From a phage, in sequence record PZ465523.1: a stretch of 49,119 nt of DNA; one strand, written 5' to 3'. Shown here in pieces: positions 9,125 to 47,462 of the stretch. The position numbers and the translations under genes are program-made. Within the stretch, counting starts at the first letter, position 1; each line of letters begins with the position of its first letter. Below the pieces are notes generated by a model. The model saw only the letters and a list, made by a program, of their open reading frames with translations, searched no databases and was not told where the DNA came from.

Positions 9125-11143
9125 GTGACAATTAACATCAAGAAGCAAATCGCATTACTTGGCGAGGACTATATAAAACGCACTCAAGAACGATTCACTG
9201 TCGGTGATGTCGTTCCTTATCCGTATCAGGTTGTTGCTTATGCCGAGATCGCAAAACGCCTGTCAAATTACGAGCATCCATTCTTTGTTAAAGCGTCAGT
9301 ATCTGCGGGTAAAACAATCATATTCGCTATGGTGGCAAAGCAGTGTCAAAAAATGGGCCTGAAAATGCTTGTGCTTGCCCGGCAGGGTGAGATTGTCGAT
9401 CAGGATAGTGAGGAGATCGACAACTTCGGGGTAACGAACTCCATCTTCTCAGCATCGCTTGGAATCAAGTCCTGCTACTTCCCGATCGTGGTTGGCTCTG
9501 AGGGTACGGTTGCAAATGGCCTCGACAATGAGTTGGCTGATTTTGTCCCGCATGTAATTGGGATCGACGAATGTCACCAGGTGGATTGGGAAGATCTTGC
9601 GCAAGCCATCGAAGGAAAGGAAACGATGGAGCAGATGAAGGGCGAGAAAGGGAAAGTTATTATGGACGGGGAGATTCCTCTGATTGGTAATGACGGGAAA
9701 CCTTTACTTGGAACTAAGCGAAGCCAGTACACGATCGTAATTATGGAGATGATGCGTCGCTGTAAAGAGATTCACGGGCATGACCTCAGAATATTTGGCA
9801 TGACAGGATCTGAATTTAGGGGCGTTGTTCCGATTCTAGTGGAGAATCCAAAGGCGTTAGGATTCTGGCGTGAGCGCGTAACTGATATCGATACAAACTA
9901 TCTGATTGAGTTCGGCTCTGTTGTGCCGACGATATTCGGCTCTACTGACGGCGTACACTACGATCTTGATAAGTTCAAGGCATCAAGCGAGGACGGCGTA
10001 CAGGACTTTACAGAGAAAGATATGAAGGCAATGGAAAATGAGATCCTTCATGATAAATCTCTTACTCAGCGAATAATGCAAATGGTCGCCAAAAAGGCTG
10101 AAGAACGTAACGCGGTTCTGATTACATGCGCTGGGGTGCGTCACTGTAAAGAGGCGGCGGCGGCACTGCCTCCAGGAAGCACCTATGCAATAATCACTGG
10201 CGACACAGACACCAAAACGCGCAAGAAGATTCTGGACGATGTGAGGGCTGGGAAAATTAAATACACCTTTCAGGTAATGGCGCTAACTACTGGCGTTAAC
10301 GTTCCAAATTGGGATTTCAGCGTAATACTTCGCAAGATAGGATCGCTCACTCTGTTGATTCAGCTTTTGGGTAGGGGGATGCGCCTGCTTAAATCATGGC
10401 AGGTTGCTGAAGGAATGGTTAAGCAAGACCATCTGGTATGGGATTTCGCTGGCACTATGGATGAGTTGGGCCAACTTTATTTCGATCCGATACTTGAGCA
10501 GGCTCAATTCCAGAAGCGATTCGAAAACGGCAAAGACCCGAAAACGTGCCCTAAGTGTGGCTGCGTTAATAGCTTCTACGCTCGCAGATGCGTTAACGTT
10601 ATCGACGGTGAACGTTGCGATTATTTCTGGACTTCTCAGATTTGCGAGGACCAGGTGGATGAGCGTACTGGTAAAATCCTTGTTAAAGGGTGTGGTGCTG
10701 AGAATGACGTTGTTGCCCGGGTATGTCGTTGTTGTGATGTTTCTCTTGTCGATCCGAACTTGAAGCTATCCGGGAAGGCGTACACTAAGAATGACTGGTA
10801 CGAGGTAAAGAATTTTGAGGTTACGCTAACCAAAAACCAAAAGGGCGTTATATACAAATACACGCTGATTGATGATGAAGGTGATGAGTTCAAGGCGTAT
10901 GAAAAATTCTTCCCTGAGTCAGACTCTAAGATTTGCGGTACGCTATGGAAAACAAAAGGTGTATTACCTCATGTGTCAGATCCTAAAATGCGCCGCTACT
11001 TTATCGGAATGAAGAACGCCATCAAGATTTTGCAATACTCACATCATATTGCTCACCCGGTGCGCGTAACTCATCGTCGCAACCAGAAGAAAGAAGATAT
11101 TATCTCACGCAAAGACTTCGGTATGGAGGATATCCCGGAATGA
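9125..11143 (+). CDS. SF2 (DExH-type) ATP-dependent helicase with C-terminal zinc ribbon
   Basis: Walker A-like SAGKT, motif II GIDECHQ, C-terminal CPKCGC...C cluster; GTG start. Confidence 0.7.
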   Translation: MTINIKKQIALLGEDYIKRTQERFTVGDVVPYPYQVVAYAEIAKRLSNYEHPFFVKASVSAGKTIIFAMVAKQCQKMGLKMLVLARQGEIVDQDSEEIDNFGVTNSIFSASLGIKSCYFPIVVGSEGTVANGLDNELADFVPHVIGIDECHQVDWEDLAQAIEGKETMEQMKGEKGKVIMDGEIPLIGNDGKPLLGTKRSQYTIVIMEMMRRCKEIHGHDLRIFGMTGSEFRGVVPILVENPKALGFWRERVTDIDTNYLIEFGSVVPTIFGSTDGVHYDLDKFKASSEDGVQDFTEKDMKAMENEILHDKSLTQRIMQMVAKKAEERNAVLITCAGVRHCKEAAAALPPGSTYAIITGDTDTKTRKKILDDVRAGKIKYTFQVMALTTGVNVPNWDFSVILRKIGSLTLLIQLLGRGMRLLKSWQVAEGMVKQDHLVWDFAGTMDELGQLYFDPILEQAQFQKRFENGKDPKTCPKCGCVNSFYARRCVNVIDGERCDYFWTSQICEDQVDERTGKILVKGCGAENDVVARVCRCCDVSLVDPNLKLSGKAYTKNDWYEVKNFEVTLTKNQKGVIYKYTLIDDEGDEFKAYEKFFPESDSKICGTLWKTKGVLPHVSDPKMRRYFIGMKNAIKILQYSHHIAHPVRVTHRRNQKKEDIISRKDFGMEDIPE

Positions 11144-11556
11144 TTACAGACAATGGTGATTATTTAGAGTTTTACGAGCGAGATCCTAGCGACACTCGAA
11201 AGGAGGACGCTCATCAGGTGGATTGCGTGTCCTGGCTGAAATACAATTTCCCTCACCTTCTATTTTGGCACACTGTCAATGAAGGTGAAAAAACAATCAC
11301 ATCGGCACTAAGGGATGAACAAGCTGGATTACTTAAAGGCGTGTCAGACTTCGTTATCCTGATTGGTGTCAACTCACGATACCCGTTTGCAGCAATAGAA
11401 CTCAAGCGGGTTAATAAGTCAGGCAAAGGAAAGGCGTCACCAGTCAGCGATAAGCAAAGGGAGTTTCTTCGAAAGGTCCGGGAGCGTGGAGGCTTCTCTG
11501 CCGTCGCATACGGATTCGCGCAATTCAAGATCTCAATTTACGAAATGATGAAATAG
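11140..11556 (+). CDS. VRR-NUC-like nuclease domain protein
   Basis: 138 aa with conserved D...E.K spacing typical of VRR-NUC; start overlaps helicase stop. Confidence 0.5.
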   Translation: MITDNGDYLEFYERDPSDTRKEDAHQVDCVSWLKYNFPHLLFWHTVNEGEKTITSALRDEQAGLLKGVSDFVILIGVNSRYPFAAIELKRVNKSGKGKASPVSDKQREFLRKVRERGGFSAVAYGFAQFKISIYEMMK

Positions 11557-11596
11557 CACTTTTTGTTAAAACTGCCGGAATGGAATCTGGCATTAT
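11552..11596 (+). promoter_or_regulatory. Box-type promoter: AATAGCACTTTTTGTTAAAA, 22 nt, CATTAT
   Basis: Upstream of Dam gene; box overlaps stop of VRR-NUC gene. Confidence 0.55.
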
Positions 11597-11623
11597 TATC
11601 TCACCAAAACGAGAGGACTAAAA

Positions 11624-12337
11624 ATGAAAGACTTCAATGATATTGAAACCATCGACTTTGCAGAGACTGGTTGCTCATTCACTCGCGAAGCAATAGCATC
11701 AGGCGGTTATTATCAGGCGCTAAAAACGCCAACCTGCAAAGAGATTTCAGGACGTCGATACAAGGGAACAAATACCCCTGACGCCGTTCGTGATTTATGG
11801 TCAACTCCGCGCGAGGTTATTTCATACCTTGAGGGGCGCTACGGAAAATATGATCTCGACGCTGCGGCAAGCGAAGAAAATAAAGTTTGCGAGAAGTTTT
11901 ATTCTCAGGAAACAAACTGCTTAAAACGTTGGTGGGGTAAAAATAAGCATGTGTGGTTAAATCCTCCTTATAGTCGACCTGATATATTCATCAAGAAGGC
12001 GATCGAGCAAATGGAGCACAACAATCAGATTGATATTCTGTTGCCTGCTGATAATTCTACAGCGTGGTTTACTGAGGCTCGACAGCACGCGGCTGAGATT
12101 ATCTGGATTGAAGCGGATTTGACTGAGGATATCGACGGGAACGAGTACGCACGATCCGGTCGCCTGGCGTTCATATCAGGTGAAACCGGGAAGGCCGTTG
12201 ATGGTAATAACAAAGGTTCTGTGATTTTCATTATGCGCGAACTGAAAGATGGTGAGGTTCAACAGACTCACTATATCCCAATCACAAGCATTTGCCCTTC
12301 AGTTAAAAACAAGCGCGCAAAATTAAGGAAAGTATGA
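11624..12337 (+). CDS. dam: DNA N6-adenine methyltransferase (phage Dam family)
   Basis: DLDAAAS and NPPYS motifs. Confidence 0.75.
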   Translation: MKDFNDIETIDFAETGCSFTREAIASGGYYQALKTPTCKEISGRRYKGTNTPDAVRDLWSTPREVISYLEGRYGKYDLDAAASEENKVCEKFYSQETNCLKRWWGKNKHVWLNPPYSRPDIFIKKAIEQMEHNNQIDILLPADNSTAWFTEARQHAAEIIWIEADLTEDIDGNEYARSGRLAFISGETGKAVDGNNKGSVIFIMRELKDGEVQQTHYIPITSICPSVKNKRAKLRKV

Positions 12338-12585
12338 TGAACGAGAAAATGATTCCTGTTAAGTTAACAGATCAAGGTTTATGGCTACTTTATCGAGCTA
12401 CGTGCTGCGAAATTATGGAGCGAAACGGATTGACTCAGGATGTTATTGGTTGCGATCTGTGGGAGTTCACTAGTTCTCTTGATATGTCTTTCGATGAGAT
12501 AAAAAATGAACATATAGAGAGTTGGCCTTCAATTATCCAGAAAGACGTAGAGGAACTTAAAGCAGATACGATCGCGCAGCACTAA
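12334..12585 (+). CDS. Hypothetical protein
   Basis: ATG overlapping Dam stop; stop codon lies inside the next box. Confidence 0.5.
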   Translation: MMNEKMIPVKLTDQGLWLLYRATCCEIMERNGLTQDVIGCDLWEFTSSLDMSFDEIKNEHIESWPSIIQKDVEELKADTIAQH

Positions 12586-12619
12586 TTGCTAAAAATACCC
12601 GGCGAAAGTCGGGTATAGT
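12578..12619 (+). promoter_or_regulatory. Box-type promoter: AGCACTAATTGCTAAAA, 22 nt, TATAGT
   Basis: Hairpin TACCCG-gcgaaagt-CGGGTA inside the spacer. Confidence 0.55.
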
Positions 12620-12651
12620 TATTTCATTGAGACGAAACGAGGAATCAAAAG

Positions 12652-12861
12652 ATGGCACGCATTAACGCAAACTTTTTCAATATCGCTCAACAGTCAGCAA
12701 AAATGGCTGTTCATATCACCAACAAGAAAGGCGGTAACTTTGATTGGGATATTGCTATGAACTTCCTTAAAATGGCTTATTACCTATGCTCAGTCAAAGA
12801 TGTTGAGTGTTTTATTGAAAGCGTGGAGAAACTAACCAATGCTGATAAAAAAACAAGGTAA
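12652..12861 (+). CDS. Hypothetical protein
   Basis: RBS GAGGAA; ORF-track ORF. Confidence 0.5.
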   Translation: MARINANFFNIAQQSAKMAVHITNKKGGNFDWDIAMNFLKMAYYLCSVKDVECFIESVEKLTNADKKTR

Positions 12862-13111
12862 ACGAGAGGTTTGGGAGCACGCGAAGGAATGCGGAATATC
12901 AGACGATATAGCACTAATAGCAAAATATTTCGATATAAAGGATGTTAGCATCATCTCAAACGGAAAGATTTCATTTATGGAAGATATGCCGAGAAAAATG
13001 CATAGAGTGCCAGCCACCCCATCACTTGAGTTTTATCGTGAAGAAGGAAAGAGAATTGAGCGAGAACGAAAAAACGCAAAGAACAACAAGCCTTCCAGGC
13101 TTAAATATTAA
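12839..13111 (+). CDS. Hypothetical basic protein
   Basis: Lys/Arg-rich C-terminus; overlaps frame of 12942..13343. Confidence 0.45.
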   Translation: MLIKKQGKREVWEHAKECGISDDIALIAKYFDIKDVSIISNGKISFMEDMPRKMHRVPATPSLEFYREEGKRIERERKNAKNNKPSRLKY

Positions 13112-13343
13112 CTCAGATGACTACCAGACAATATGGATTGGGAAAAAGCAGGTTAAGCAAATCCCTTTCTCTGACTGGTTGCCACCTGACTTTGTTAATG
13201 TGCTTTGCACTATCGGTATCGAGCAGGAGTTGCATATAGGTTACTACTCACCAGGCAGAAACAGTATGATGCTTGAGGTTGACGGAAAACTTGTTGAGTT
13301 TAAACATGCTGATCTAGGATTCTGGTTAAAGGCTGTGGCATGA
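12942..13343 (+). CDS. Hypothetical protein; only the part after 13111 looks protein-like, start unresolved
   Basis: Frame has no ATG after 13111; possible +1 frameshift fusion with 12839..13111. Confidence 0.35.
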   Translation: MLASSQTERFHLWKICREKCIECQPPHHLSFIVKKERELSENEKTQRTTSLPGLNINSDDYQTIWIGKKQVKQIPFSDWLPPDFVNVLCTIGIEQELHIGYYSPGRNSMMLEVDGKLVEFKHADLGFWLKAVA

Positions 13344-13421
13344 AACTTTATTTTGCTGTAGTATTAACACCGCTAATTTAATTTTCATTAATGTATTTCA
13401 TTATCATGTAAGGATTAAAAT

Positions 13422-14573
13422 ATGTCACAAGCTAAAATCACCACCGAGCAACTTATCGAAGAGCGCATGAACGGCCTCACACTTCGCGAGATCGCGGAAA
13501 AGTACGGTATGCACATTCGCACTGTTGAAGCGCGCCATGCCAAGCTGGCAAAAGAAGGTCATTTCCACGGTAACGAGCATGTTGCTAAAAACGTGCCCGA
13601 GGGATTCATGGTAAAAGGCACGTCGACGATGATTCGAGGTGATGGGACCGAGGTAGTGCGCTGGGTAAAAACCGATCAGGACCGTGAGAAGATTGCAGCA
13701 ATGATGGAAGCGGCGCGCATTGCATTCTGTGAAGACCTGCCGCGAGCAAAGCCAACCGAGTTACTAACCTCGCAAGGGCTTACTACAGCTATGGGTAAGC
13801 TGGCACTATATCCGGTATTCGACCTGCACATTGGCGCGCTTGCTCACAAGCATGAATGCGGAGAGAACTACTCTACCGACGTAGCTGAAAAAGTGCTTGG
13901 CGACTTCTTCAATTACGCGATCGATATTGCTCCTAAAGCAGAGAAAGCTGTTCTGTTAATCGGCGGTGACTTCCTTCACTCTGACGGTCTTGATGCTGTT
14001 ACCCCGGCAAGCGGTCACGTTCTGGATCAGGATTCACGATACGCAAAATTGGTGCATGTTGCGATCCGTTCGGTGCGTCGCGCTATCGACAAAATGCTTA
14101 TGAAACACAAAGAAGTCGAGGTTCAGATTATTGAAGGGAACCACGACCAGGCCGGGATGATTTGGCTACGCGCTGCAATGTCGGCATATTATGAAGACGA
14201 GCCGCGAGTATTCGTTGACGTTAGCCCTATGATTCTGCATAAGACTCGATGGGGAAACACCTTATTGGGATACACTCACGGGCACACTATGAAAAAGGCA
14301 GACACGCGACTTGCAGCGATGGCGGCAGACTTCCGTGCAGACTTCGGAGAGAGCAAGTATGTGTATACTCATAGCGGTCACTGGCATCATCAGACAATCA
14401 CTGAACACTCGTTAGGTATCGATGAGGTTCACGGTCAGTTAGGAGCGAAGGATGCATACGCAGCACGAGGCGGGTGGCGCTCATATCGTCAGGCGGCGGT
14501 AATCGTTTACGACAAGCAATTTGGTGAGATAGGTCGATTCATCTACCGTCCAGAAATGACAGGATCGCATTAA
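13422..14573 (+). CDS. Metallophosphoesterase (calcineurin-like) with N-terminal HTH-like segment
   Basis: GDFLHSD, GNHD and GHTH-like metal-binding motifs. Confidence 0.6.
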   Translation: MSQAKITTEQLIEERMNGLTLREIAEKYGMHIRTVEARHAKLAKEGHFHGNEHVAKNVPEGFMVKGTSTMIRGDGTEVVRWVKTDQDREKIAAMMEAARIAFCEDLPRAKPTELLTSQGLTTAMGKLALYPVFDLHIGALAHKHECGENYSTDVAEKVLGDFFNYAIDIAPKAEKAVLLIGGDFLHSDGLDAVTPASGHVLDQDSRYAKLVHVAIRSVRRAIDKMLMKHKEVEVQIIEGNHDQAGMIWLRAAMSAYYEDEPRVFVDVSPMILHKTRWGNTLLGYTHGHTMKKADTRLAAMAADFRADFGESKYVYTHSGHWHHQTITEHSLGIDEVHGQLGAKDAYAARGGWRSYRQAAVIVYDKQFGEIGRFIYRPEMTGSH

Positions 14574-14607
14574 TTGCTAAAAATGCCCGAACGGATTCGG
14601 GTATAGT
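14568..14607 (+). promoter_or_regulatory. Box-type promoter: GCATTAATTGCTAAAA, 22 nt, TATAGT
   Basis: Gene stop TAA embedded in box; hairpin CCCGAA-cgga-TTCGGG in spacer. Confidence 0.55.
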
Positions 14608-14638
14608 GACCACATCTAAAACAAAGAGGATGCATATC

Positions 14639-14815
14639 ATGAAACGAGTTAAGTGCATCCGAAATGACTCAAAAACACTTCCATTCCGCGTAAATCAGAT
14701 TTATAGTGTTGGTTATGATTTCGGTGGTGGATTGTTTGAGATTTACGACGGGCAAGGTTCAGTAATCCAAGCACCTCTGAAAGGTAGCTATCTGGAATTT
14801 ATTGCGATAGATTAA
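14639..14815 (+). CDS. Small protein of the Cys beta-hairpin repeat family
   Basis: ATG after RBS AAAGAGG; VKCIRNDSKTLPFRVNQIYSV motif. Confidence 0.55.
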   Translation: MKRVKCIRNDSKTLPFRVNQIYSVGYDFGGGLFEIYDGQGSVIQAPLKGSYLEFIAID

Positions 14816-14836
14816 CAATATCATTCATCACCTTAC

Positions 14837-14869
14837 AGGCTGGCATGATTTACATGCTGGCCTTTTTGC
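14837..14869 (+). terminator. Rho-independent terminator
   Basis: 11-bp stem with two G-U pairs, 5-nt loop, then UUUUU. Confidence 0.65.
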
Positions 14870-14933
14870 GTTGTATCAATTAAATTTGAAGGTTAAAATC
14901 GACTCACTTGTTCAAAAAATATATGGTGAGATT

Positions 14934-15149
14934 ATGAAAGAATTTTTAACAGCAGCTACGTCAAGCACGGGCGGTGCTTCGTTGGTAGGGGCAGCGACAG
15001 GTCAACTTTATATTGCTGGCGCTACATTCATTTGCTTTCTGCTTTTTGGCGCTTGGGGAGCGTACTGGAAGTATCGCGATAGCAAGGCAATTCAGGAAGC
15101 GTTAAACGATGGCGATCTAAATAAGGCGCTTAAGATCAGGGGGAGATAA
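14934..15149 (+). CDS. Holin, single-TMD, possibly pinholin-like
   Basis: 71 aa with hydrophobic helix [21 protein letters not shown]; immediately upstream of endolysin. Confidence 0.55.
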
Positions 15150-15637
15150 TGAGTTTAAAAAATAACGTTATAGGAGCATCGATCGGGGCAGCTTTGACGT
15201 TGACACCTACCCTACTGGAACGAATCGAAGGTATAGAATACGAGGTTTATTACGATATCGCCGGAGTCCCTACCGTATGCAGCGGAATAACCGGGCCGGA
15301 CGTCATACCTGGTAAGAAATACACTAAGCGAGAATGCGATGCTTTGTTGATAAAACACATCGGCGTTGCTCAGAGATACGTAGACAAAAAGGTGAATGTT
15401 GATATTCCGGTAACGATGCGCGCGTCATTGTATAGCTTTACTTTCAACGTTGGTACTGGCGCGTTCGGATCTTCTACAATGCTTAAGCTAATAAATCAGG
15501 GTAAGCACAGGGAAGCGTGCAATCAGTTATGGCGATGGGTATACTACTACAACCCAAAAACCAAAAAGCGCGAAGTGTCTAGAGGACTCAAGAACAGACG
15601 CTCTGAAGAATACGCGTATTGCGTTAAGGAATTATGA
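15149..15637 (+). CDS. Endolysin, GH24 lysozyme family, with SAR-like N-terminal signal-anchor
   Basis: [23 protein letters not shown] catalytic region; Gly/Ala/Ser-rich weakly hydrophobic N-terminus. Confidence 0.7.
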
Positions 15638-16038
15638 TGAAACTGAAGAAAACATGCATTGCGATTGTAGTGGCTGTTGGTGTTATTTCTCTATCCTGTT
15701 GCTCGACGGCATCTGCCCTGAGCGGTTTAATCGGATCTAAACCTGAAGTTACAGCACAGATTGGAGAGGAGAACACAAAGCAATTAGCAGGAGTGACCGC
15801 AAAATCCGAAGATAAGCGAGATGTTAAAGTTGAAAAGTCCAATGTAGGAAAGGTTGACTCTTCCGTGAAGAAGTCAATTGAAGTTTCAACCATTCAGGCC
15901 AACACGGTTAACGCTGAAAGCATCACTGTTACAAAACCTGGGAACTGGTACGACGCTATCGCTGGCTGGACCCTCGTTCTCATTGGTCTGTTGCTGGTTT
16001 ATTTTTCACTTCGCAAGGACGAAAAAAAGGAGGCATAA
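15634..16038 (+). CDS. Unimolecular spanin-like lysis protein
   Basis: N-terminal lipoprotein-like signal ending LSCC plus C-terminal TMD; last gene of lysis cassette. Confidence 0.55.
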
Positions 16039-16053
16039 GCCTCCTTTTCTTTT
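16029..16053. terminator. Bidirectional terminator between convergent operons
   Basis: GGAGGC-ataa-GCCTCC stem with flanking A- and T-runs; spanin stop codon sits in the loop. Confidence 0.65.
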
Positions 16054-16267
16054 ATGCATCAGCCCACATGTAACTTTCGTTCGTGAGTTTTGCGTATTCG
16101 CGAACTTCAATTTCACAGGTGTCTACGTACATCTCAGCGACCTTTTTCTCATTCGCTACCGCTGATTCCTCGGTCCATCCATCAGCTTTGCTGTAGAGGG
16201 TAGGAATTTCACTTCTAGTGCCGTTAGAGTGATTGTAAACGCGAACTACTAAAAATTTGTTAGCCAT
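16052..16267 (-). CDS. Hypothetical protein (72 aa)
   Basis: ATG after RBS GAAGGA; first gene downstream of box at 16330. Confidence 0.5.
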   Translation of the reverse strand: MANKFLVVRVYNHSNGTRSEIPTLYSKADGWTEESAVANEKKVAEMYVDTCEIEVREYAKLTNESYMWADA

Positions 16268-16304
16268 GATATTTTCCTTCAGGTCGTTTCGTTTCGATGA
16301 AACA

Positions 16305-16350
16305 AATATACCCGATACGAGATCGGGTGTTTTAACAAAAAGTGCTATTT
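16305..16350 (-). promoter_or_regulatory. Box-type promoter: AAATAGCACTTTTTGTTAAAA, 22 nt, TATATT
   Basis: Hairpin CCCGAT-ctcgt-ATCGGG in spacer. Confidence 0.55.
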
Positions 16351-16456
16351 GTATCTTTTTACGTGGAGAAGCAACTCCCCATCTTGGTCGCAAAGATCAT
16401 GCTCGCTGTCGCCGTTGGCTCTCATTGAAGTGAGTAGCAGGCTCAATAATCCTTGT

Positions 16457-16864
16457 TCAAATTCTTCTTTCGTAAGCTGGAGACTTGCGCACAATTCGAC
16501 GTTCCGATCTATCAACGTTTCTACGTTCGCCAAACAATTCCTCATCACTCATTTCTCCAATGTGCATCATTTCCCACGTATATCGATTGTTGTAGCCATC
16601 AATACACATCAGCTTCATCATTACCGGGCGCTTGATCTTTCCCTTGCACCAGTAAAATCCATCATTACGATCCAAGTAACCCTCAGTCACGCAGCGTGCG
16701 CAAAACTCCTTAGATAGCGCGCTTGTAAATTCACGGTGAGTCATCCCGGCGGCCTTAGCAAATCGCTCACTTTCCTTGTGGGCGTATATAAATTTCGCTA
16801 TGTGCTGCCGAGTGTATTTGTCGTAACCTTCGCAGAACCTGAACAGATCCAAAAGAAGAAGCAT
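16457..16864 (-). CDS. Hypothetical Cys-containing protein (135 aa)
   Basis: ORF-track ORF with ATG start 4 nt after upstream stop. Confidence 0.5.
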   Translation of the reverse strand: MLLLLDLFRFCEGYDKYTRQHIAKFIYAHKESERFAKAAGMTHREFTSALSKEFCARCVTEGYLDRNDGFYWCKGKIKRPVMMKLMCIDGYNNRYTWEMMHIGEMSDEELFGERRNVDRSERRIVRKSPAYERRI

Positions 16865-16868
16865 ATTT

Positions 16869-18437
16869 TTAACCCATCAGTCGAGGATTTATGAAAACAA
16901 TATCATCAATACGGCAAGTGTAATTCATCTCTTCTAGCGTGATTAGAAGACTGTCGATTCGCTCAGATACTTTCTGTTGACCGTTGAACGGAGTAACGTT
17001 CCGGCACTTTGCAACAATACTATGAATAGGTGCGCGGCCTTTGTTCTTCTTCGCGATCTCAGTGATAACATCAATCAGCTTACGAGATTCAGCCTCATCA
17101 CCAGCATACCCGGCAGCGCTGGCAGACGACAGATAAGTCCTGGAAAGCTCATTGAAGATCATGATCGCTTCCTGCATTGTTTCAAGGTCAATCTCACGGT
17201 TGGAACGGTTCGGTGATTCACCCTCCCAATTCTTGATCGTGTGGAGAACCGAAGCAATACGCAAAGCGTGCTTATCGAACTTGCCGAGATGACCGCGAAG
17301 CATTGAGTGAGAGTATTTCCCCCCGGCGGCGAAATCAGGCTCCATCGCCTGGCGCGCAAGGTTTAATTCACGCATAGCATTACGGCTCACAGAGAGAACA
17401 ACGTTGTCCTCCTTCATGATGTTGTGCACGAGTCTGTAATATTTGCTAACCAGTCCGCGATCGACTTCCTTATACAGCGCATCGCCATTTTCATCACAAA
17501 GAATACGAGTACCTAAAAGCGGCTCCTCGCGAACCAACAAGAAACGTTCGGATACACCTATACCGCGCTGGCCTGCATCCATGATGCCCTTGATTGTTTC
17601 ATCCTGCGCAATGACGCAGATCGAACCGACCGGGCAAAGAGATAAGTTGTTGTCCTGATTTGAACGCGCGACCTCCATATGGTTTTTATCCCACGCCTTA
17701 AGGATAAGCTCACTGTTAGATTTCTTATCTGAACCGCCATACGTAAGCCCGAGCAATGTATTGATTGCCGTTGCCTCGTCAGATATTACGGAAAAGTGAC
17801 CTTGCACTGCCGCCACTTTCGCAAGACCTTCAGGTGTAGGATCTGATACAGCGAAAACAATATCAGCCATCTTCTTGATCTTCTCTTCCAGCTTTTCTTT
17901 GTCCTCGTACAGAGCCGCCGTCGTGTTGCCTTTAGGATCGTTTTTTATTTCCTTCTCGACCTGACGTAGCTGACTGGTTAAACGGATACGTTCCTTTTTG
18001 CGCTCTTCATTCAGTCGCTGAATCTCCGCACGCATAGGTGTAATCGCCGCTGAGTTAATCGCTGATTTACCTGTTGATGGTGGCTGACTGATTACCATGT
18101 AAAGCGCTGTCGGCTGTTCTTCTCCATGATATTGCACCCAAAACTTCCCGAGCATCGCGGCTGATATGCAACCGATAAAATGAGCATACGCGGATGAAAC
18201 CGGGAACTGGACTGATTCAGCTTTTGCTTTTGCATATTCGAATACCAGGTTATCGCCACCTAACGAAATCAGAGGGAACTTATCGTTTCCGCTGTTGATA
18301 TCGATCGGATCTTGCCAAAAAGAAACTGAATCCCCGTAACTGTTTTCACGAATTGCGATCGCCACCGGATTCACTCCAGTGCTATTTGCGATCTCAATAA
18401 TTTGTTGGTAATTCAGTTTTGGCTTAATGTTAAACAT
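16869..18437 (-). CDS. Large early protein, possibly replication-associated; function unresolved
   Basis: 523 aa; start set at ATG 18437 after RBS AAGGAG; no clear Walker A. Confidence 0.6.
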   Translation of the reverse strand: MFNIKPKLNYQQIIEIANSTGVNPVAIAIRENSYGDSVSFWQDPIDINSGNDKFPLISLGGDNLVFEYAKAKAESVQFPVSSAYAHFIGCISAAMLGKFWVQYHGEEQPTALYMVISQPPSTGKSAINSAAITPMRAEIQRLNEERKKERIRLTSQLRQVEKEIKNDPKGNTTAALYEDKEKLEEKIKKMADIVFAVSDPTPEGLAKVAAVQGHFSVISDEATAINTLLGLTYGGSDKKSNSELILKAWDKNHMEVARSNQDNNLSLCPVGSICVIAQDETIKGIMDAGQRGIGVSERFLLVREEPLLGTRILCDENGDALYKEVDRGLVSKYYRLVHNIMKEDNVVLSVSRNAMRELNLARQAMEPDFAAGGKYSHSMLRGHLGKFDKHALRIASVLHTIKNWEGESPNRSNREIDLETMQEAIMIFNELSRTYLSSASAAGYAGDEAESRKLIDVITEIAKKNKGRAPIHSIVAKCRNVTPFNGQQKVSERIDSLLITLEEMNYTCRIDDIVFINPRLMG

Positions 18438-18466
18438 CACAATAAACTCCTTAGTTGACGGTGTGA

Positions 18467-18512
18467 ATGATACACCGCCAATGTTACACGCGTTTTGCAA
18501 AAAGTGCTATTG
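18467..18512 (-). promoter_or_regulatory. Box-type promoter: AATAGCACTTTTTGCAAAA, 22 nt, TATCAT
   Basis: Hairpin CGGTGT-atcattc-ACACCG downstream. Confidence 0.5.
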
Positions 18513-18513
18513 G

Positions 18514-18930
18514 TTATAAGTATTTGGCCTCAAAGGTTGTGCCGTCAGCAATACTAAAACCAATCTCTTCGCGGAATAATGTCCAGCGGCAACCGTCCTC
18601 ATCAAAGATGTAACCAGCCACTCCACCGAGAGCGCGACCGCTTTCCACCTGGTAACGCTTGCCAACTTTGAATGATTTTTTCATTGGGTTGCGATGGTCA
18701 AGCCCGGTACACTTGAGTGTTTTGGTTTTAAGTTCAGTGAATTTTGCGAAGAAGATTTCATCAGATCCGTGAATCTGTAATTCATCGTGCTTATCAAGTT
18801 TTAAATACTTACCGCACTTTAACTTAACCTCGCGAGTGCCATCGTAGCGTTCTCGACCTTTGTACATGTTGTTAACTTCAAATCCTGTGATTTTGTCTGC
18901 TGAAGTGCATTTAAGTTTGATGGATTTCAT
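18514..18930 (-). CDS. Cys beta-hairpin repeat family protein (2-3 repeats)
   Basis: Repeats IKLKCTSADKITGFEV / VKLKCGKY / LKCTGLDHRNPMKKSFKVGKRYQV; start at ATG 18930 after CAGGAG. Confidence 0.6.
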   Translation of the reverse strand: MKSIKLKCTSADKITGFEVNNMYKGRERYDGTREVKLKCGKYLKLDKHDELQIHGSDEIFFAKFTELKTKTLKCTGLDHRNPMKKSFKVGKRYQVESGRALGGVAGYIFDEDGCRWTLFREEIGFSIADGTTFEAKYL

Positions 18931-18966
18931 TGCGTTCACTCCTGATTGGTTATCTTGAATAAGGCC

Positions 18967-19013
18967 ACTTTATCAAATGACATTACGTCAATATTAACAA
19001 ATCGTGCTATTTA
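18967..19013 (-). promoter_or_regulatory. Box-type promoter: AAATAGCACGATTTGTTAA, 22 nt, TAAAGT
   Basis: Read on minus strand. Confidence 0.5.
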
Positions 19014-19223
19014 CCAGGGAATATAATCGTCGTCGTCATTATCAACAATATCATCGCCGGGCATCTCGAAGTCGGGATTATATTCACTTTCTGCGTCCAT
19101 ATCCATATTCCCTAGCGCGTCGTCAAGCGTAATTTCTTTATATGCAACCTTGATACACCATTCCGCACTAAGCCCGGCATCGAGCGCGGCAAAATAACGA
19201 GTCCAGAAATTATCCTGTTCCAT
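19011..19223 (-). CDS. Small acidic protein (70 aa)
   Basis: C-terminus DDIVDNDDDDYIPW. Confidence 0.5.
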   Translation of the reverse strand: MEQDNFWTRYFAALDAGLSAEWCIKVAYKEITLDDALGNMDMDAESEYNPDFEMPGDDIVDNDDDDYIPW

Positions 19224-19226
19224 TAA

Positions 19227-19451
19227 TTAGCTCCATGAATTAATGTAAATCGAGTTAGCCTCAAGCGTTGCGCGAACATCCGCATCTGTTGCATTTACTA
19301 AGCGCGATCCTGGTGTGCTGCCAATAACGTTATTACCGTTCCGAGCCTTAGTTACCGTCATTGAAACAAAACCGGAAGGCTTATCCATTTTGATAACTAC
19401 ACGTCCTTTCGCGTTCAGATGCTTGATGATATTCTCAACTTTAATACTCAT
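19227..19451 (-). CDS. Hypothetical protein (74 aa)
   Basis: ORF-track ORF with ATG start. Confidence 0.5.
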   Translation of the reverse strand: MSIKVENIIKHLNAKGRVVIKMDKPSGFVSMTVTKARNGNNVIGSTPGSRLVNATDADVRATLEANSIYINSWS

Positions 19452-19484
19452 TTTTAATTCCTTTATTTCGCTTGGTGTGGGAGT

Positions 19485-19530
19485 AATATACCTTACTCCC
19501 TATTTATTGTCTTTAGCAATTAGTGCTATC
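19485..19530 (-). promoter_or_regulatory. Box-type promoter: GATAGCACTAATTGCTAAA, 23 nt, TATATT
   Basis: Hairpin GGGAGTAA-ggtatat-TTACTCCC. Confidence 0.55.
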
Positions 19531-19672
19531 AGTACTCGGAAATTACTTTGCACTCTTTGATTGTTCCACCTAGAACTACTTTCTGCATCATTGCTTTTTG
19601 GTGACTATCGTAAACGCGAACATTTTTTACGCTGTTAAATTTGCCAGTATAGAAAGTGTGAATATAAATCAT
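19529..19672 (-). CDS. Small protein (47 aa) not in ORF track
   Basis: ATG overlaps upstream stop as ATGA; its own TGA abuts the box TAGCAC. Confidence 0.4.
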   Translation of the reverse strand: MIYIHTFYTGKFNSVKNVRVYDSHQKAMMQKVVLGGTIKECKVISEY

Positions 19673-19989
19673 TTTTTACCGTCCCATGTTTGATACGCCG
19701 TCACAAGGTTAATGCTATGGTCGAACTCGTCAATGCTAAGCGATCCGATTCGAACCAGTTCTTTATCATGCTTAATATCGATCATCCGGCTATATGGATG
19801 ACCTGGCACGTATTTGAACAGTCGCTTACTGTCGGCAATATCAGCGTTGATTCCATAGAATCGGCCCACTGCCGCCTTCACGCGCTCCATGATGTTTTTT
19901 TCGTGGATTGCCGCCGCGTTATTCAATGCCGCGACCGTGCTTCCGTTAATCTTCGGTGATTTAGTTGTGATTTTATAAGTGTGGTTCAT
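19669..19989 (-). CDS. Hypothetical protein (106 aa)
   Basis: Start at ATG 19989 after RBS AGGGGGAA. Confidence 0.55.
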   Translation of the reverse strand: MNHTYKITTKSPKINGSTVAALNNAAAIHEKNIMERVKAAVGRFYGINADIADSKRLFKYVPGHPYSRMIDIKHDKELVRIGSLSIDEFDHSINLVTAYQTWDGKK

Positions 19990-20005
19990 TATTCCCCCTA
20001 ACCAG

Positions 20006-20569
20006 TCAGGATAGCTTTCGCGCTTCATCAATGATAACAGGTTCGAGACGCTCAAGTCGAACGCGGAACGTGTTCATAAATCCTTCGTTATTCTTCAATA
20101 GCTCGAAGGCGTCTGTTGCCTCAATGGCGCTATTTCCCATGTAGGCAACTACGCTCTTTTGCGTCTTGCGTGAGATCGCCACCACGCGGTAAATATTATC
20201 ACTCATACAATGCCTCCTTAACACGGTGCGCAATGCAGGAATTGACGGTGATTGAGTAGTTTGCCACGCCCATAATGCAATATTGCCAAGCTCGGTACGC
20301 ATTGATGGATTGTTAAGCTGGATTATCGTCTCTCCAGTATCTTTATCTACGAAGCGAGACACGCCCAAATGGTCAACCACGCGCGTTACGCGGTTCACGC
20401 ACTCCATTGCATCACTTACGCCGTAATAAGCGCTCAGAGCGGCTCTCACGGCCTTCTCTTGCTTGTTGTAAATCTTGCGCGCTATGTTCTCGATCGCAAT
20501 CTGCTCTTTTTCGTCAGTCTGTATTGCCGTGCTTGCTGAGAAGTCCAAGTCAATGAACTGCTTAAACAT
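20006..20569 (-). CDS. Hypothetical protein (187 aa)
   Basis: Start at ATG 20569 after RBS GAGGAAAG, downstream of box promoter at 20601..20645. Confidence 0.55.
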   Translation of the reverse strand: MFKQFIDLDFSASTAIQTDEKEQIAIENIARKIYNKQEKAVRAALSAYYGVSDAMECVNRVTRVVDHLGVSRFVDKDTGETIIQLNNPSMRTELGNIALWAWQTTQSPSIPALRTVLRRHCMSDNIYRVVAISRKTQKSVVAYMGNSAIEATDAFELLKNNEGFMNTFRVRLERLEPVIIDEARKLS

Positions 20570-20600
20570 GATTCTTTCCTCGTTTGCTGTTGATGGGATG

Positions 20601-20645
20601 ACTATACCAGCCATCCCGGATGCGCGTTTAGCAAAAAGTGCTATC
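20601..20645 (-). promoter_or_regulatory. Box-type promoter: GATAGCACTTTTTGCTAAA, 22 nt, TATAGT
   Basis: Hairpin GGGATG...CATCCC overlapping the -10. Confidence 0.55.
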
Positions 20646-20646
20646 C

Positions 20647-20751
20647 TCAGCGACCAACTGCATCCATAATGATTAAGAACATGATCGCGACCAGGCATCC
20701 TGACAGAGAGAAAAGCACCGATCCAATTGCATAATTAAAAAACTTTGCCAT
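20647..20751 (-). CDS. Small membrane peptide (34 aa)
   Basis: MAKFFNYAIGSVLFSLSGCLVAIMFLIIMDAVGR; RBS GAGGG; stop abuts box. Confidence 0.45.
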   Translation of the reverse strand: MAKFFNYAIGSVLFSLSGCLVAIMFLIIMDAVGR

Positions 20752-20756
20752 AATTA

Positions 20757-20984
20757 CCCTCTGAAACTATCAATTGTGTCGTTGATGTATTTCACTTGAG
20801 CCTCTACGTCAGACGTTGCGATATACTGGAATGTATCGTAATCATCCCACAAGTCGACAAGCTCAACCTTTGTATGATGCTATTTTAAGCCGCCCATGTG
20901 ACCGTAATGTGTGCGGTAGACGATGAATCCCTCATCATTGGCGCGCTGAATTGCTTTCTTTAATCCGGGGTGTTTAATTGCCAC
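20757..20984 (-). pseudogene. Reading frame interrupted by a single in-frame TAG; possible pseudogene or readthrough gene
   Basis: GTG start, 34 codons, TAG at 20880..20882, then 41 more in-frame codons to TAA at 20754..20756. Confidence 0.3.
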
Positions 20985-21015
20985 TTGGTCATTTCTCTGA
21001 TTGGTTGATGTTTTA

Positions 21016-21060
21016 AATATACCCCGATCACCTTCGGGGCGTTTAGCAATTCGTGCTATT
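21016..21060 (-). promoter_or_regulatory. Box-type promoter: AATAGCACGAATTGCTAAA, 22 nt, TATATT
   Basis: Hairpin CCCCGA-aggtga-TCGGGG in spacer. Confidence 0.55.
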
Positions 21061-21394
21061 AATCAATATCGAACTCAGCGGCATACGCTTTCTTGAAGCC
21101 AGCTTCACGCATGGTGCGCTTGCTGATTTTGCGCGGGAATTTGTACTGGCTGTTAGGCATAACCCACCAGAAGCAAGCAGTTTCACGAACGATTTCATAT
21201 TTACCGTAACGGGTGAAGGTGTCACGTTCCGCGTCCGGCTGGTTAACACAGGTCAGGAATTTAGCCGCTTTGTCTTCAGTTTTGATTTCTTCCCATACGA
21301 AGGAATCCATACCGTTAACATTGCAAGCTACCATGATGTACTCAACGCCGTTTTCGATTTTGATGATTTCGTTACCGCGATTTTCGTATTTCAT
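21059..21394 (-). CDS. Hypothetical protein (111 aa)
   Basis: ATG with RBS AGGAGCAGGAAA; C-terminus reads through the box. Confidence 0.5.
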   Translation of the reverse strand: MKYENRGNEIIKIENGVEYIMVACNVNGMDSFVWEEIKTEDKAAKFLTCVNQPDAERDTFTRYGKYEIVRETACFWWVMPNSQYKFPRKISKRTMREAGFKKAYAAEFDID

Positions 21395-21432
21395 TTTCCT
21401 GCTCCTGATGTGTATCTCGTTTCGATGAGGTA

Positions 21433-21478
21433 ATTATGCCAAACTACCCCGATCGAGTTTTAACAAAAAGTGCTATTT
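21433..21478 (-). promoter_or_regulatory. Box-type promoter: AAATAGCACTTTTTGTTAAAA, 22 nt, CATAAT
   Basis: Box encodes the Dcm C-terminus NSTFC and its stop. Confidence 0.55.
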
Positions 21479-22164
21479 GCGATCGCTTTGAAAAATCCAC
21501 GCGGCGACAGGGATCGTATCAGTTTGGTCTTTGCCGACTTGCCGCCCAACTTGCTATGCTGCGCAGAGTACCCTTCAGGAAGGCTTACAGGTTTTCTCTC
21601 CGGCATGACAAAATCGTCCGAGGTCCAAAGACACGTCTTTTTCGGATAAGCATCGCGCGGCGCAATATACATCGGGAACCAGGGATGCGAGTCATTCTCA
21701 GGAAGATAGCCGCCATACTCCCAGGGATTGAATGAGTGATCTGGTTTTCTCCAGGCAGATGACAGAACGCTAACCGGATTCTCAATGATGTAAGTCACGC
21801 CCAGGGCGTCGCCAATATTCGCAGCAATCCGGGCGGTGGCAACGGCCTTCTCCTGGAATAAGGGATTGCGCTTACGCTTACTTGCAAAGTGACGAGCACC
21901 ACTAACAGCCAGGTCAGTGCATGGAGGAAAGGCCATAATGAAATCCGGCTTACCATACACACCCGCAATCGCATCACGTTCGAACGTCTCATCAATGAAG
22001 ACGTTCACATACTCAATGTTCGGATGCTGTACCCGAGCATTGTACTTTGCATAATCTCCGTGATCGGCCCCGTCAAAGTTGAAGCACATCACCTTATGAC
22101 CTTGCTTAGCCAGTTCATGACCAGCAAGGCCGGAACCGTCGAATAGTGACCAAATTAGTTTCAT
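21460..22164 (-). CDS. dcm: DNA cytosine-5 methyltransferase
   Basis: LFDGSGLAG (motif I-like), FPPCTDLAVSG (motif IV PC), IIENP (motif VI ENV); start at ATG 22164 after AGGAGA. Confidence 0.7.
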   Translation of the reverse strand: MKLIWSLFDGSGLAGHELAKQGHKVMCFNFDGADHGDYAKYNARVQHPNIEYVNVFIDETFERDAIAGVYGKPDFIMAFPPCTDLAVSGARHFASKRKRNPLFQEKAVATARIAANIGDALGVTYIIENPVSVLSSAWRKPDHSFNPWEYGGYLPENDSHPWFPMYIAPRDAYPKKTCLWTSDDFVMPERKPVSLPEGYSAQHSKLGGKSAKTKLIRSLSPRGFFKAIANSTFC

Positions 22165-22197
22165 TGCAAATCTCCTGCTGATTGGTTGATGTGATGA

Positions 22198-22242
22198 ATC
22201 ATACCCTGCCAACATAGCTAAGTCGTTAGCAAAAAATGCTAT
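22198..22242 (-). promoter_or_regulatory. Box-type promoter variant: AATAGCATTTTTTGCTAAC, 23 nt, TATGAT
   Basis: Immediately upstream of Dcm leader CAACCAATCAGCAGGAG. Confidence 0.5.
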
Positions 22243-22427
22243 TCCAATAGTTGCTCATTATTCCATCAATAGTGGAATAGTTGGAATAATTTTGATTGTG
22301 ATTGATTGCGAATGATTAAACGTGATTATTGCATTGTGTGCAACAGTTGGTTGATTTGTTGATGAGAATGCAATGATTGTGAGAGGGAGGATTTAGTGTT
22401 ACCCGGTTCGCTTGGTAGTCACCTCCA

Positions 22428-22447
22428 TTTTTAGCAAAAAGTGCTAT
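22428..22447 (-). promoter_or_regulatory. Box GATAGCACTTTTTGCTAAAA without a matching -10 at the usual spacing
   Basis: Distal-most box of the leftward arm, followed by hairpin GGAGG...CCTCC. Confidence 0.45.
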
Positions 22448-22856
22448 CCGTCTATATCTTCGTTGTAATTGTCGTAATAGTTGTATACTATCGGGGGTGT
22501 TACAAAATGGCCCCGAAGGGATGGGCCTATATATACTAAAATATCTATATATAATAATAAGATAGATAATATATATATATTTATTTATTATATTATATAT
22601 TGGTATGTAATCGGCGTAATAGGTGCAACCGCATTTTTGGAAGGTGGCATATATTTCAGGGTGCATAGTATAAAAAACATACTATTCCGCGCGTCGAAAT
22701 GGATGTGTGTGCTTTTATAGAAAAAGTCGGTTGCATCGGTTGCACTGGTTACAAAAATAAAAAATGCAGCTATAGACATTGACGCGCCTAGCCAGGTTGC
22801 TGTAACATGTTTTTCGGGGCGGCAAGTTACGCCCGTAGACAACGAGGTATAGACAA

Positions 22857-23432
22857 ATGAAAACTCAGCTTAAAGAAGTAACGGAATTCGAACTCAACTT
22901 GCCGGACTACATTCGCAAGGCGATTGAAAATCACCGTTCAGGGAGTGAGTTCTCAATCACCGGAAAGCAAATGGTAGCTATCTACGTGCATGAGCAAGCC
23001 GAGATCGTAAAGATCACTCAGGATGTTGAGCTAACCGAGGACCAGATTGATGAGGCTATCATTAACGAGTACACGTCGCGCTCAGCCTGGTTGCTCGAAC
23101 GACTCACCGCTTCGTATGTTTCCAATATCATCAAGCGCCACATGCTCAAGGTGCATAACAAGGCCGTGTCGGTTCGAATCAATCGCGATCAGGTGGATGG
23201 CGTGACGATATTCATCACTGAACTGGAAGGTGAGGAAGCAGAAAAGGTCATAGGCGAAGCGAAACAGGGAAAGAGAGGACGGAAGCGTAAGAGCGTAGCC
23301 GATGTGTTCAATGCGAAGGTTGAGGCGTTCAGAATCGATCTGAGAGAGTTTGAAGGAAGCAACATCTCGGTATCGGATCTCAATAAACTGGTGGAGCAAT
23401 TCCGCGCACATTTACTGGGTGAGGAGAAGTAA
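22857..23432 (+). CDS. Hypothetical early protein (191 aa)
   Basis: First gene of rightward early operon; acidic protein with Lys/Arg cluster KQGKRGRKRK. Confidence 0.55.
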   Translation: MKTQLKEVTEFELNLPDYIRKAIENHRSGSEFSITGKQMVAIYVHEQAEIVKITQDVELTEDQIDEAIINEYTSRSAWLLERLTASYVSNIIKRHMLKVHNKAVSVRINRDQVDGVTIFITELEGEEAEKVIGEAKQGKRGRKRKSVADVFNAKVEAFRIDLREFEGSNISVSDLNKLVEQFRAHLLGEEK

Positions 23433-23603: not shown

Positions 23604-23648
23604 AATAGCACTTTTTGTTAAAACCGGATCGGAATAACCTGGTATAGT
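23604..23648 (+). promoter_or_regulatory. Box-type promoter: AATAGCACTTTTTGTTAAAA, 22 nt, TATAGT
   Basis: Read directly; upstream of gene 23680..24168. Confidence 0.55.
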
Positions 23649-23679
23649 AACCCCATCGACAACGAACGAGGACGCAAAC

Positions 23680-38904: not shown

Positions 38905-39315
38905 ATGAATCAAGAAACTTTAATTGCAGTTATCGAGCAAATGCGAAAGCTGGTTCCGGCACTTCGCAAGGTTCCAGACGAAACGCTTTATGCTTGGGTA
39001 GAAATGGCTGAGCTATTTGTATGCCAGAAGACCTTTAAAGATGCATACGTCAAGGCGCTTGCTCTTTATGCATTGCACCTTGCTTTCCTTGATGGGGCGC
39101 TAAAAGGTGAAGATGAGGATCTTGAATCGTACTCACGACGCGTTACGTCATTCTCCCTGAGCGGTGAATTTAGCCAGACTTTCGGAGAGGTGACGAAGAA
39201 CCAGTCAGGAAACATGATGCTATCGACGCCGTGGGGTAAGATGTTCGAACAGCTTAAAGCACGACGCCGTGGTCGATTCGCATTAATGACAGGACTCCGT
39301 GGAGGATGCCGCTAA
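38905..39315 (+). CDS. Head-tail connector / adaptor-like protein
   Basis: Position and size in the head-tail joining block. Confidence 0.45.
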   Translation: MNQETLIAVIEQMRKLVPALRKVPDETLYAWVEMAELFVCQKTFKDAYVKALALYALHLAFLDGALKGEDEDLESYSRRVTSFSLSGEFSQTFGEVTKNQSGNMMLSTPWGKMFEQLKARRRGRFALMTGLRGGCR

Positions 39316-46058: not shown

Positions 46059-46789
46059 TTAGTGCAAAAATTAAACTTGAAATCATGACCCACGCTCAAG
46101 AAGAATACCCCCGCGAATGCTGCGGGGTAGTTACCCAAAAGGGCCGGGTGCAAAAATACCATAGAGTCGATAATGTGCATCGTGATCCTGAAAATCATTT
46201 CATGATGGATGCTGTGCAGTACGCATGTATTGAGGACGACGCGGAATCAACCACGATCGCAATTGTTCATAGTCATACCGGGGACGGAGCTACAACTCTT
46301 CCAAGCGCTCACGATACGTGCATGTGTAATGAGATGGAGGTGACCTGGGTTATTGTTAGCGTACCGGAAGGAGATATGCGATTTGTGAAGCCTGAGAAAT
46401 TACCTCTGATTGGTCGTCCGTGGTCGTTAGGCTCATTTGACTGTTACGGTCTTGTTATGGCTTGGCACAAAGAGCACGGCGTAGAATTGCGCGATCGAAG
46501 GTTGAATTTTGAATGGTGGAAACCGGAATATGGAATTAATCTCTATCAGGATTATTACAAGCAAGATGGATTCGTTGAGATTCCAGATCAGAATAATCCG
46601 TCGCTCGGTGATATGGTAATCATGCAGATAGGGCAAAATGTTCCGGTGTGGAACCATGCAGGGATTTACCTGGGTGATAATCAGATCTTGCATCACGCAT
46701 TCGGAAAGCTATCACGTCGTGATATTTATTCCGGCTGGTATCAGGATCACACGGTTTTAATTGTTCGCCATAAGGATCTTAAATTATGA
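46055..46789 (+). CDS. Tail assembly protein (lambda K-like), MPN/JAB plus NlpC/P60-like
   Basis: JAMM-like HSHTGD motif and Cys/His-containing C-terminal domain. Confidence 0.7.
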   Translation: MISAKIKLEIMTHAQEEYPRECCGVVTQKGRVQKYHRVDNVHRDPENHFMMDAVQYACIEDDAESTTIAIVHSHTGDGATTLPSAHDTCMCNEMEVTWVIVSVPEGDMRFVKPEKLPLIGRPWSLGSFDCYGLVMAWHKEHGVELRDRRLNFEWWKPEYGINLYQDYYKQDGFVEIPDQNNPSLGDMVIMQIGQNVPVWNHAGIYLGDNQILHHAFGKLSRRDIYSGWYQDHTVLIVRHKDLKL

Positions 46790-47385: not shown

Positions 47386-47391
47386 AATATA

Positions 47392-47414
47392 CCCGCCTTG
47401 CGCGGGTTTTTTTT
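47392..47414 (+). terminator. Rho-independent terminator (cassette copy 2)
   Basis: Same stem CCCGCCTTGCGCGGG followed by TTTTTTTT. Confidence 0.7.
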
Positions 47415-47420
47415 CGCCTG

Positions 47421-47447: not shown

Positions 47448-47462
47448 AAAAAGGTAAACACC

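Follow-up and report, generated by a model that had tools for sequence, protein, structure and literature searches.

Sequence record PZ465523.1, a phage DNA of 49,119 nucleotides that we analysed over its whole length (hereafter referred to as the window), contains two genes for putative DNA methyltransferases, one of the N6-adenine type (ORF A; ORF, open reading frame) and one of the C5-cytosine type (ORF B), and the locus raises the question of which DNA sites the two enzymes modify and what the phage gains from them. An initial annotation, made from the sequence alone, placed the genes at 11624..12337 and 21460..22164 and took the pair to suggest broad protection of the genome against restriction. 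Here we find that ORF A encodes a near-identical copy of the Dam protein of phage T1, and that ORF B encodes a minimal C5-cytosine enzyme whose closest studied relative deposits 5-methylcytosine (5mC). In our overall reading, to which we assign a probability of roughly 85%, the two proteins are orphan, site-specific methyltransferases, Dam (GATC) and a minimal C5 enzyme, that modify the phage's own replicating DNA. The integrity of the genes, their family and fold membership, the conservation of catalytic residues, the near-identity to T1 Dam and the homology to the enzyme of phage K42 were computed here.

The window is the genome of a Tunavirus (T1-like, Drexlerviridae). Megablast searches with positions 11000–23000 and 1–25000 returned Shigella phages phiL, SH6 and Shfl1 and Escherichia phages Eco_BIFF and LeonhardEuler at 91–96% identity over 86–97% of the query. 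The same gene pair is annotated in these relatives as 'DNA methyltransferase (x2)' or as 'putative Dam methylase / putative site specific DNA methylase', and in the BASEL phage LeonhardEuler as 'Dam-like N6-adenine methyltransferase' plus 'Dcm-like C5 cytosine methyltransferase'. The closest relative, phiL, has exactly two annotated methyltransferases and no gene annotated as integrase or repressor. Both genes of the window were confirmed at the positions and with the motifs first described, ORF B lying on the minus strand, which had been left unstated. The assignment of one N6-adenine and one C5-cytosine methyltransferase to a virulent T1-like genome also held, by hidden Markov model (HMM) scores for ORF A and by motifs and fold for ORF B, and neither gene has an obvious cognate restriction enzyme. 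A tblastn search with the two proteins detected no third methyltransferase-like ORF in the window.

The adenine methyltransferase gene, its motifs and the hairpin that precedes it are located as follows (AdoMet, S-adenosylmethionine).

11624..12337, plus strand: dam gene, N6-adenine DNA methyltransferase, 237 amino acids (aa), assigned by PF05869, TIGR01712 and identity to T1 Dam
11852..11869, plus strand: DLDAAA, residues 77–82 of the translation, which we take to be the AdoMet-binding motif
11960..11971, plus strand: NPPY, catalytic motif IV, residues 113–116 of the translation
11573..11592, plus strand: terminator-like hairpin between the VRR-NUC gene and dam, found by consensus scan; T1 has an annotated rho-independent terminator at the equivalent place (38973–39001), just upstream of dam

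ORF A matches PF05869 'Dam' (E = 1.1e-68, 230.6 bits, cut-off 28.1) and the NCBIfam equivalog TIGR01712 'phage_N6A_met' (phage N-6-adenine-methyltransferase; E = 3.7e-71, 238 bits, cut-off 97.05), and contains both a (D/N)PP(Y/F) motif IV and an upstream AdoMet-binding motif, which are not chance occurrences because the Dam HMM scores far exceed the thresholds. Over its full length it is 97.5% identical to T1 Dam (M.EcoT1Dam; ST20, YP_003925.1), which likewise has 237 aa; the handful of substitutions includes nothing that points to a functional difference, and in both genomes the gene comes after those for the helicase and the VRR-NUC protein and has a terminator-like hairpin before it. The T1 dam product converts GATC to G6mATC: T1 DNA from a dam-deficient host is still sensitive to DpnI, a CRISPR-made dam deletion abolishes DpnI sensitivity and confers MboI sensitivity, and host Dam methylates the DNA of the dam mutant only partly (PMC10470545). 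The initial annotation held that the target sequences could not be read from the sequence; given the near-identity to T1 Dam, the target of ORF A can be inferred, and we assign it as GATC with high confidence. ORF A would thus be expected to convert GATC to G6mATC on replicating phage DNA in an AdoMet-dependent manner, a phage copy being needed because replication outruns host Dam.

The cytosine methyltransferase gene has the following features.

21460..22164, minus strand: minimal phage C5-cytosine DNA methyltransferase ('Dcm-like'), 234 aa, assigned by motifs, predicted fold and homology to the K42 enzyme
22172..22176, minus strand: Shine–Dalgarno sequence AGGAG, 7 nt upstream of the ATG at 22164, read from the sequence
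22129..22143, minus strand: motif I, FDGSG (F-x-G-x-G, AdoMet binding), residues 8–12; G10, S11 and G12 are invariant in the alignment
21898..21930, minus strand: motif IV, FPPCTDLAVSG, residues 79–89, with the catalytic Cys82; C82 is invariant or nearly so
21775..21789, minus strand: motif VI, IIENP, residues 126–130 (E128-N129, equivalent to ENV); E128, N129 and P130 are conserved
21637..21654, minus strand: DAYPKK loop (D171, Y173, K175 and K176), probable DNA-contact or target-recognition element, from its conservation and the K42 Dcm residues

The mechanically called ORF reaches back to an ATG at 22215 (251 aa); the start at 22164 is the right one, because AGGAG precedes it with a 7-nt spacer and homologues are 225–240 aa long. 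The C5-methyltransferase motifs occur in the proper order, FDGSG (8–12), PPC (80–82) and ENP-V (128–131), lined up with those of M.HaeIII and E. coli Dcm. Among 24 close and 44 diverse family members, the conserved positions include the G-x-G of motif I, P80–C82, E128-N129-P130, D171/Y173/K175 and, near the C terminus, R217/R222/G223; within the DAYPKK loop, D171 and Y173 are invariant and K175 is nearly invariant among the 44 diverse members. The family is large, with 4323 matching clusters at 90% identity and 1052 representatives at 50% identity, and occurs in 1522 of 50,697 phage records, including Drexlerviridae, Dhillonvirus and several large (130–165 kb) Escherichia, Klebsiella and Salmonella myovirus genomes. 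Judging by its named members and contig sizes, it is mostly phage-borne. A family of this size also means that the motifs of ORF B are not there by chance. ORF B itself falls into phrog_757 'DNA methyltransferase' (E = 9e-86). An AlphaFold2 model built on the alignment (mean predicted local distance difference test score 87, predicted template modelling score 0.87) places the DNMT3A and DNMT3B catalytic domains at the top of a Foldseek search against the PDB (E = 1.7e-7), and its fold is that of C5-methyltransferases, as opposed to generic Rossmann methyltransferases.

Profile and sequence searches tell against this assignment. ORF B stays below the PF00145 gathering score (12.7 versus 22 bits, E = 0.088, in a Pfam run at E up to 10), has no NCBIfam match and finds no significant PDB sequence match by phmmer or by hmmsearch with the 24- and 44-sequence profiles, the best methyltransferase being M.HaeIII at E = 0.39; PF00145 is reached at E < 0.01 in just 1 of the 44 diverse members. 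The failure at the PF00145 threshold would suit a protein that does not methylate DNA at all, such as a DNMT2-type RNA m5C enzyme, an enzyme that transfers another group (for example, carboxymethyl from carboxy-S-adenosylmethionine, Cx-SAM) or an inactive relic. We consider any of these very improbable: the best structural matches of ORF B are DNA enzymes, thousands of homologues share an invariant catalytic cysteine and invariant ENV-like and AdoMet motifs, which argues against a relic, and mass spectrometry coupled to liquid chromatography (LC-MS) found 5mC on DNA for the K42 homologue and none for its catalytic mutant. Taken together, the fold, the motifs and the homologue data indicate that ORF B very probably forms 5mC.

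The label 'Dcm-type' in the initial annotation is not supported. Neither BLASTP (E = 8.2) nor hhalign of the family profile (E = 0.14, probability 0.4%) finds significant similarity between ORF B and E. coli Dcm. At 234 aa, it is half the size of the 472-aa Dcm, without the large recognition domain, and whereas E. coli dcm overlaps vsr, the sole same-strand ORF adjoining ORF B (21059–21394) has no Pfam domain and hence no Vsr domain. Sequence comparison thus indicates that ORF B is not an orthologue of Dcm or M.EcoRII, and that 'Dcm-like' is a functional analogy at best. ORF B stands for a phage clade of its own, minimal in size, within the C5-methyltransferase fold, and its structural model comes closest to DNMT3. 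The eukaryotic DNMT3A/3B catalytic domains share merely 13–17% identity with it, and differ in having a CpG target and in forming oligomers with regulatory domains; they and ORF B probably resemble each other as minimal forms of the same fold, with no specific relationship.

Experimental data on the family come from phage K42, a close relative of the BASEL phage KarlJaspers, in a preprint that has since appeared as Wang et al. (Cell Rep 2024;43:114857). All four K42 mutants that escaped the retron Ec86 (also Eco1) were hit in a 711-bp 'dcm' gene, including a point mutation 9 bp upstream of its start; expression of the gene was toxic solely in the presence of Ec86, and a C82A/E128A/K175A/K176A quadruple mutant, in which K175 and K176 were named as substrate-binding residues, was inactive (10.1101/2023.08.16.553469). 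LC-MS revealed high 5mC on the multicopy single-stranded DNA (msDNA) of the retron with the active enzyme only, so that the K42 enzyme deposits 5mC on Ec86 msDNA and thereby triggers the defence; 34 of 35 Ec86-sensitive phages encode this gene (10.1101/2023.08.16.553469). KarlJaspers carries a 711-bp 'Dcm-like' gene, and ORF B is 57% identical to its product. The K42/KarlJaspers 'Dcm' (Drexlerviridae, Hanrivervirus) belongs to the same small family as ORF B (236 versus 234 aa), with C82, E128, K175 and K176 at identical numbering, and both genes lie among small early genes on the leftward arm. However, 43% of the residues differ, and the neighbouring genes are others. Retron triggering and 5mC formation are, moreover, features of the K42 enzyme, the Tunavirus version being known here from sequence; these two properties, like GATC methylation by T1 Dam, are taken from the literature on homologues. 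The Tunavirus vB_EcoS_IME18 (NC_047959), with two annotated DNA methyltransferases, has E. coli BL21(DE3), a native Ec86 carrier, as its recorded host, so that a chromosomal retron may not fully exclude phages with a cytosine methyltransferase.

The target of ORF B, too, had been declared unreadable, yet its relationship to a gene tied to 5mC and CCTGG narrows the choice. We lean, by a modest degree, towards methylation of the inner cytosine of CCWGG. In the K42 study, three different substitutions in the CCTGG site of the msDNA each abolished Ec86 defence (10.1101/2023.08.16.553469). Furthermore, the singleton Sauletekiovirus AAS23, a Pantoea phage, has its own Dam and a cytosine methyltransferase recognisable by HHpred only and of possible homology to ORF B, and its DNA was judged Dam- and Dcm-methylated from a panel of digests that included MboI and EcoRII (PMC8004638). 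Indirect support also comes from the site counts of the window, in which CCWGG is not avoided.

Several observations speak against CCWGG. In the K42 study, the site was assumed from host Dcm, not mapped, and its sole test was the mutated msDNA site in dcm+ MG1655; moreover, the empty-vector control msDNA in this dcm+ strain had low 5mC (10.1101/2023.08.16.553469), in comparison to the high level with the phage enzyme, which would be odd if both enzymes used the same site. The AAS23 digests are possibly confounded by host methylation, and the density of CCWGG is equal in T1, which does not have the gene, and in the present phage (1.70 versus 1.69 per kb). These observations leave room for an active C5-cytosine DNA methyltransferase with another target; the enzyme could act on a site that is shorter or degenerate, or could favour single-stranded DNA (ssDNA) or hairpins, and 'Dcm-like' would then be a misnomer for its function as well as its ancestry. 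The absence of any sequence relationship to Dcm or M.EcoRII, the structural proximity to DNMT3, which acts on CpG and whose recognition domain is very small, and the length of the protein, about 90 aa shorter than M.HhaI (234 versus 327 residues), all fit this alternative. The msDNA substitutions and the AAS23 digests contradict it, and so does the plating of K42 on wild-type MG1655. Given the specificities of McrBC and McrA, such plating speaks against R-5mC or 5mCG as frequent marks. The high family-wide conservation of the recognition loop fits one fixed site, without saying which. On balance, we regard a target other than CCWGG as doubtful. A literature search for direct 5mC mapping in Drexlerviridae returned nothing relevant, a Druantia preprint dealing with host DNA only. 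In the preferred reading, ORF B would catalyse AdoMet-dependent 5mC formation through Cys82 of the PPC motif, with the ENP of motif VI and a recognition loop that is short and highly conserved, and would probably yield C5mCWGG.

Site counts in the window show no avoidance of GATC (239 observed versus 222 expected) and an over-representation of CCWGG (83 versus 50). Because the CCWGG density is the same in T1, these statistics show no selection tied to the cytosine enzyme and are uninformative about it. Compared with dinucleotide shuffles, the palindromes GAATTC (2 versus 21 expected), GGCC (64 versus 116), CATG (162 versus 226) and CTAG (23 versus 120) are strongly depleted, and CCGG and GATATC, like GATC and CCWGG, are either not depleted or enriched. 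Avoidance of GAATTC and GGCC would fit selection by EcoRI- and HaeIII-type restriction, beyond the reach of the two methyltransferases.

The comparison with T1 revealed that the cytosine methyltransferase gene lies in a segment which T1 does not have.

20645..22184, no strand assigned: accessory segment of about 1.5 kb, absent from T1 by blastn, with the Dcm-like gene and a 111-aa ORF
21059..21394, minus strand: 111-aa ORF of unknown function, downstream of the Dcm-like gene (no Pfam match; phrog_29431)

Positions 18516–20644 of the window are colinear with T1 46623–48751 by blastn, and the adjoining 20645–22184 has no blastn match in T1 except a repeat of about 70 bp, nor does ORF B have a tblastn match there. 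Since T1 does not have the segment, the cytosine methyltransferase is an accessory gene, and the pairing of the two methyltransferases is dispensable within the genus. In the phage collection, identity bands give about 62 Tunavirus-grade matches for Dam versus 55 for ORF B, a rough count without cross-tabulation; on these sequence matches, both genes appear to be carried by roughly most, not all, Tunavirus relatives. ORF B is the first ORF of a leftward gene block, about 165 bp from the equivalent of the T1 record end, and its neighbours are small ORFs of unknown function by Pfam and PHROG. The 111-aa ORF is present in phiL and LeonhardEuler and absent from KarlJaspers and T1; its absence from KarlJaspers rules out a conserved pairing with the methyltransferase across genera.

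The cytosine enzyme would come at a cost, because methylation of Ec86/Eco1 msDNA by its family activates abortive infection. We therefore predict that the present phage is Eco1-sensitive and T1 is not, and that loss of ORF B relieves the sensitivity. A more far-reaching possibility, which we think unlikely, is that the minimal 234-aa C5 clade is no functional copy of Dcm and recognises DNA by a rule of its own (for example, through a shorter site, or a liking for hairpins or ssDNA such as msDNA or replication intermediates), with its presence in T1-like phages set by a trade-off with retron Eco1 triggering; gene-bearing phages such as this one would then be Eco1-sensitive and T1 would be Eco1-blind. 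T1, without the 1.5-kb segment, offers a natural comparison of the retron-triggering cost with the restriction-evasion benefit of phage cytosine methylation.

As to that benefit, we infer a pay-off narrower than the broad protection proposed initially, a claim that did not hold up. Two site-specific enzymes cover only nucleases blocked at two sites, here likely those of the MboI/DpnII and EcoRII types. Published phenotypes count further against broad protection: most BASEL Drexlerviridae are very sensitive to restriction–modification, with no simple link to their methyltransferase genes (PMC8594841), making methyltransferase content a poor proxy for it. Moreover, deletion of T1 dam costs about 40% of the burst size, irrespective of a defence system (PMC10470545). 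As this defect appears without restriction, it points to an additional role beyond anti-restriction, and Dam would also add to burst size in the present phage. One may go further and suppose that selection has kept one or both enzymes chiefly for a part in the DNA transactions of the phage itself. Newly made DNA that is fully methylated could escape nicking by MutH/mismatch repair, the binding of SeqA or patch repair by Vsr; the enzymes could also aid replication, recombination, packaging or gene timing. The burst defect of T1, the missing correlation with restriction resistance in the BASEL phages and the location of dam in a replication/recombination block, beside a helicase, the VRR-NUC nuclease and a 'DNA repair exonuclease' (as annotated in relatives), all speak for this proposal. 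Nevertheless, methylation of GATC and of CCWGG blocks known restriction enzymes, and the two roles are not exclusive; the burst effect has no demonstrated mechanism; and the C5 enzyme, missing from T1, is not needed for core DNA transactions. We hold the proposal as a tentative one, behind the reading in which the two marks protect against a narrow set of nucleases.

The gene pair as such is already known: dozens of near-identical Tunavirus genomes have it in their annotation, the T1 Dam enzyme is a characterised one, most recently through a deletion mutant (PMC10470545), and the small C5 family is the published trigger of Ec86/Eco1. The finding is thus correct but ordinary, adding little beyond annotation and literature; its remaining interest lies in the recognition site of the minimal C5 clade, in the accessory status of its gene within the genus and in 'Dcm-like' denoting an analogy, not orthology.

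The surroundings of the two genes contain further features. Upstream of dam, a gene with a VRR-NUC nuclease domain (11140–11556, plus strand; PF08774, E = 8e-14) lies between dam and a SNF2/ResIII-type helicase gene (9125–11143), whose stop it overlaps; it is kept in T1 (ST21) and, with the helicase, in T1-like phages. We considered it as the cognate nuclease of Dam and thought this unlikely, given its conservation with the helicase and the terminator-like hairpin before dam; most likely, its product is a putative replication or recombination nuclease.

The T1 GenBank record has its right and left ends at neighbouring window positions, 22327/22329: by blastn, 22185–22327 corresponds to the last 143 bp of the T1 record (48694–48836) and 22329–22448 to its first 120 bp. 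The window is thus a circularly permuted version of a T1-type genome. The terminus equivalent lies in a 640-bp gene-free divergent intergenic region (22216–22856), just upstream of the cytosine methyltransferase gene. An intergenic element of 60–75 bp is repeated at 21405–21478 and 23604–23665; both copies match T1 1449–1521, and the former also matches, at 80–87% identity, T1 38951–39014, which is the terminator region immediately before T1 dam. The element is probably a recurring terminator or leader module between small early genes.

Two further differences from related phages were observed in the leftward genes. At about 20271, within an ORF at 20006–20698 (minus strand), a 1-nt deletion in a G run relative to phiL (TTATGGGGAG to TTAT-GGGCG) joins the homologues of T1 ST1 and ST2, two overlapping small genes in phiL, LeonhardEuler and T1, into one 230-aa ORF; the fusion may be genuine or may come from a homopolymer sequencing error. 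Relatives have a label of 'DNA helicase' or 'putative helicase' on a 543-aa DUF3987 protein (16869–18500, minus strand; PF13148, E = 3e-42), and the HNH endonuclease gene ST8, which adjoins the DUF3987 gene in T1, is apparently missing from the window, LeonhardEuler and phiL.

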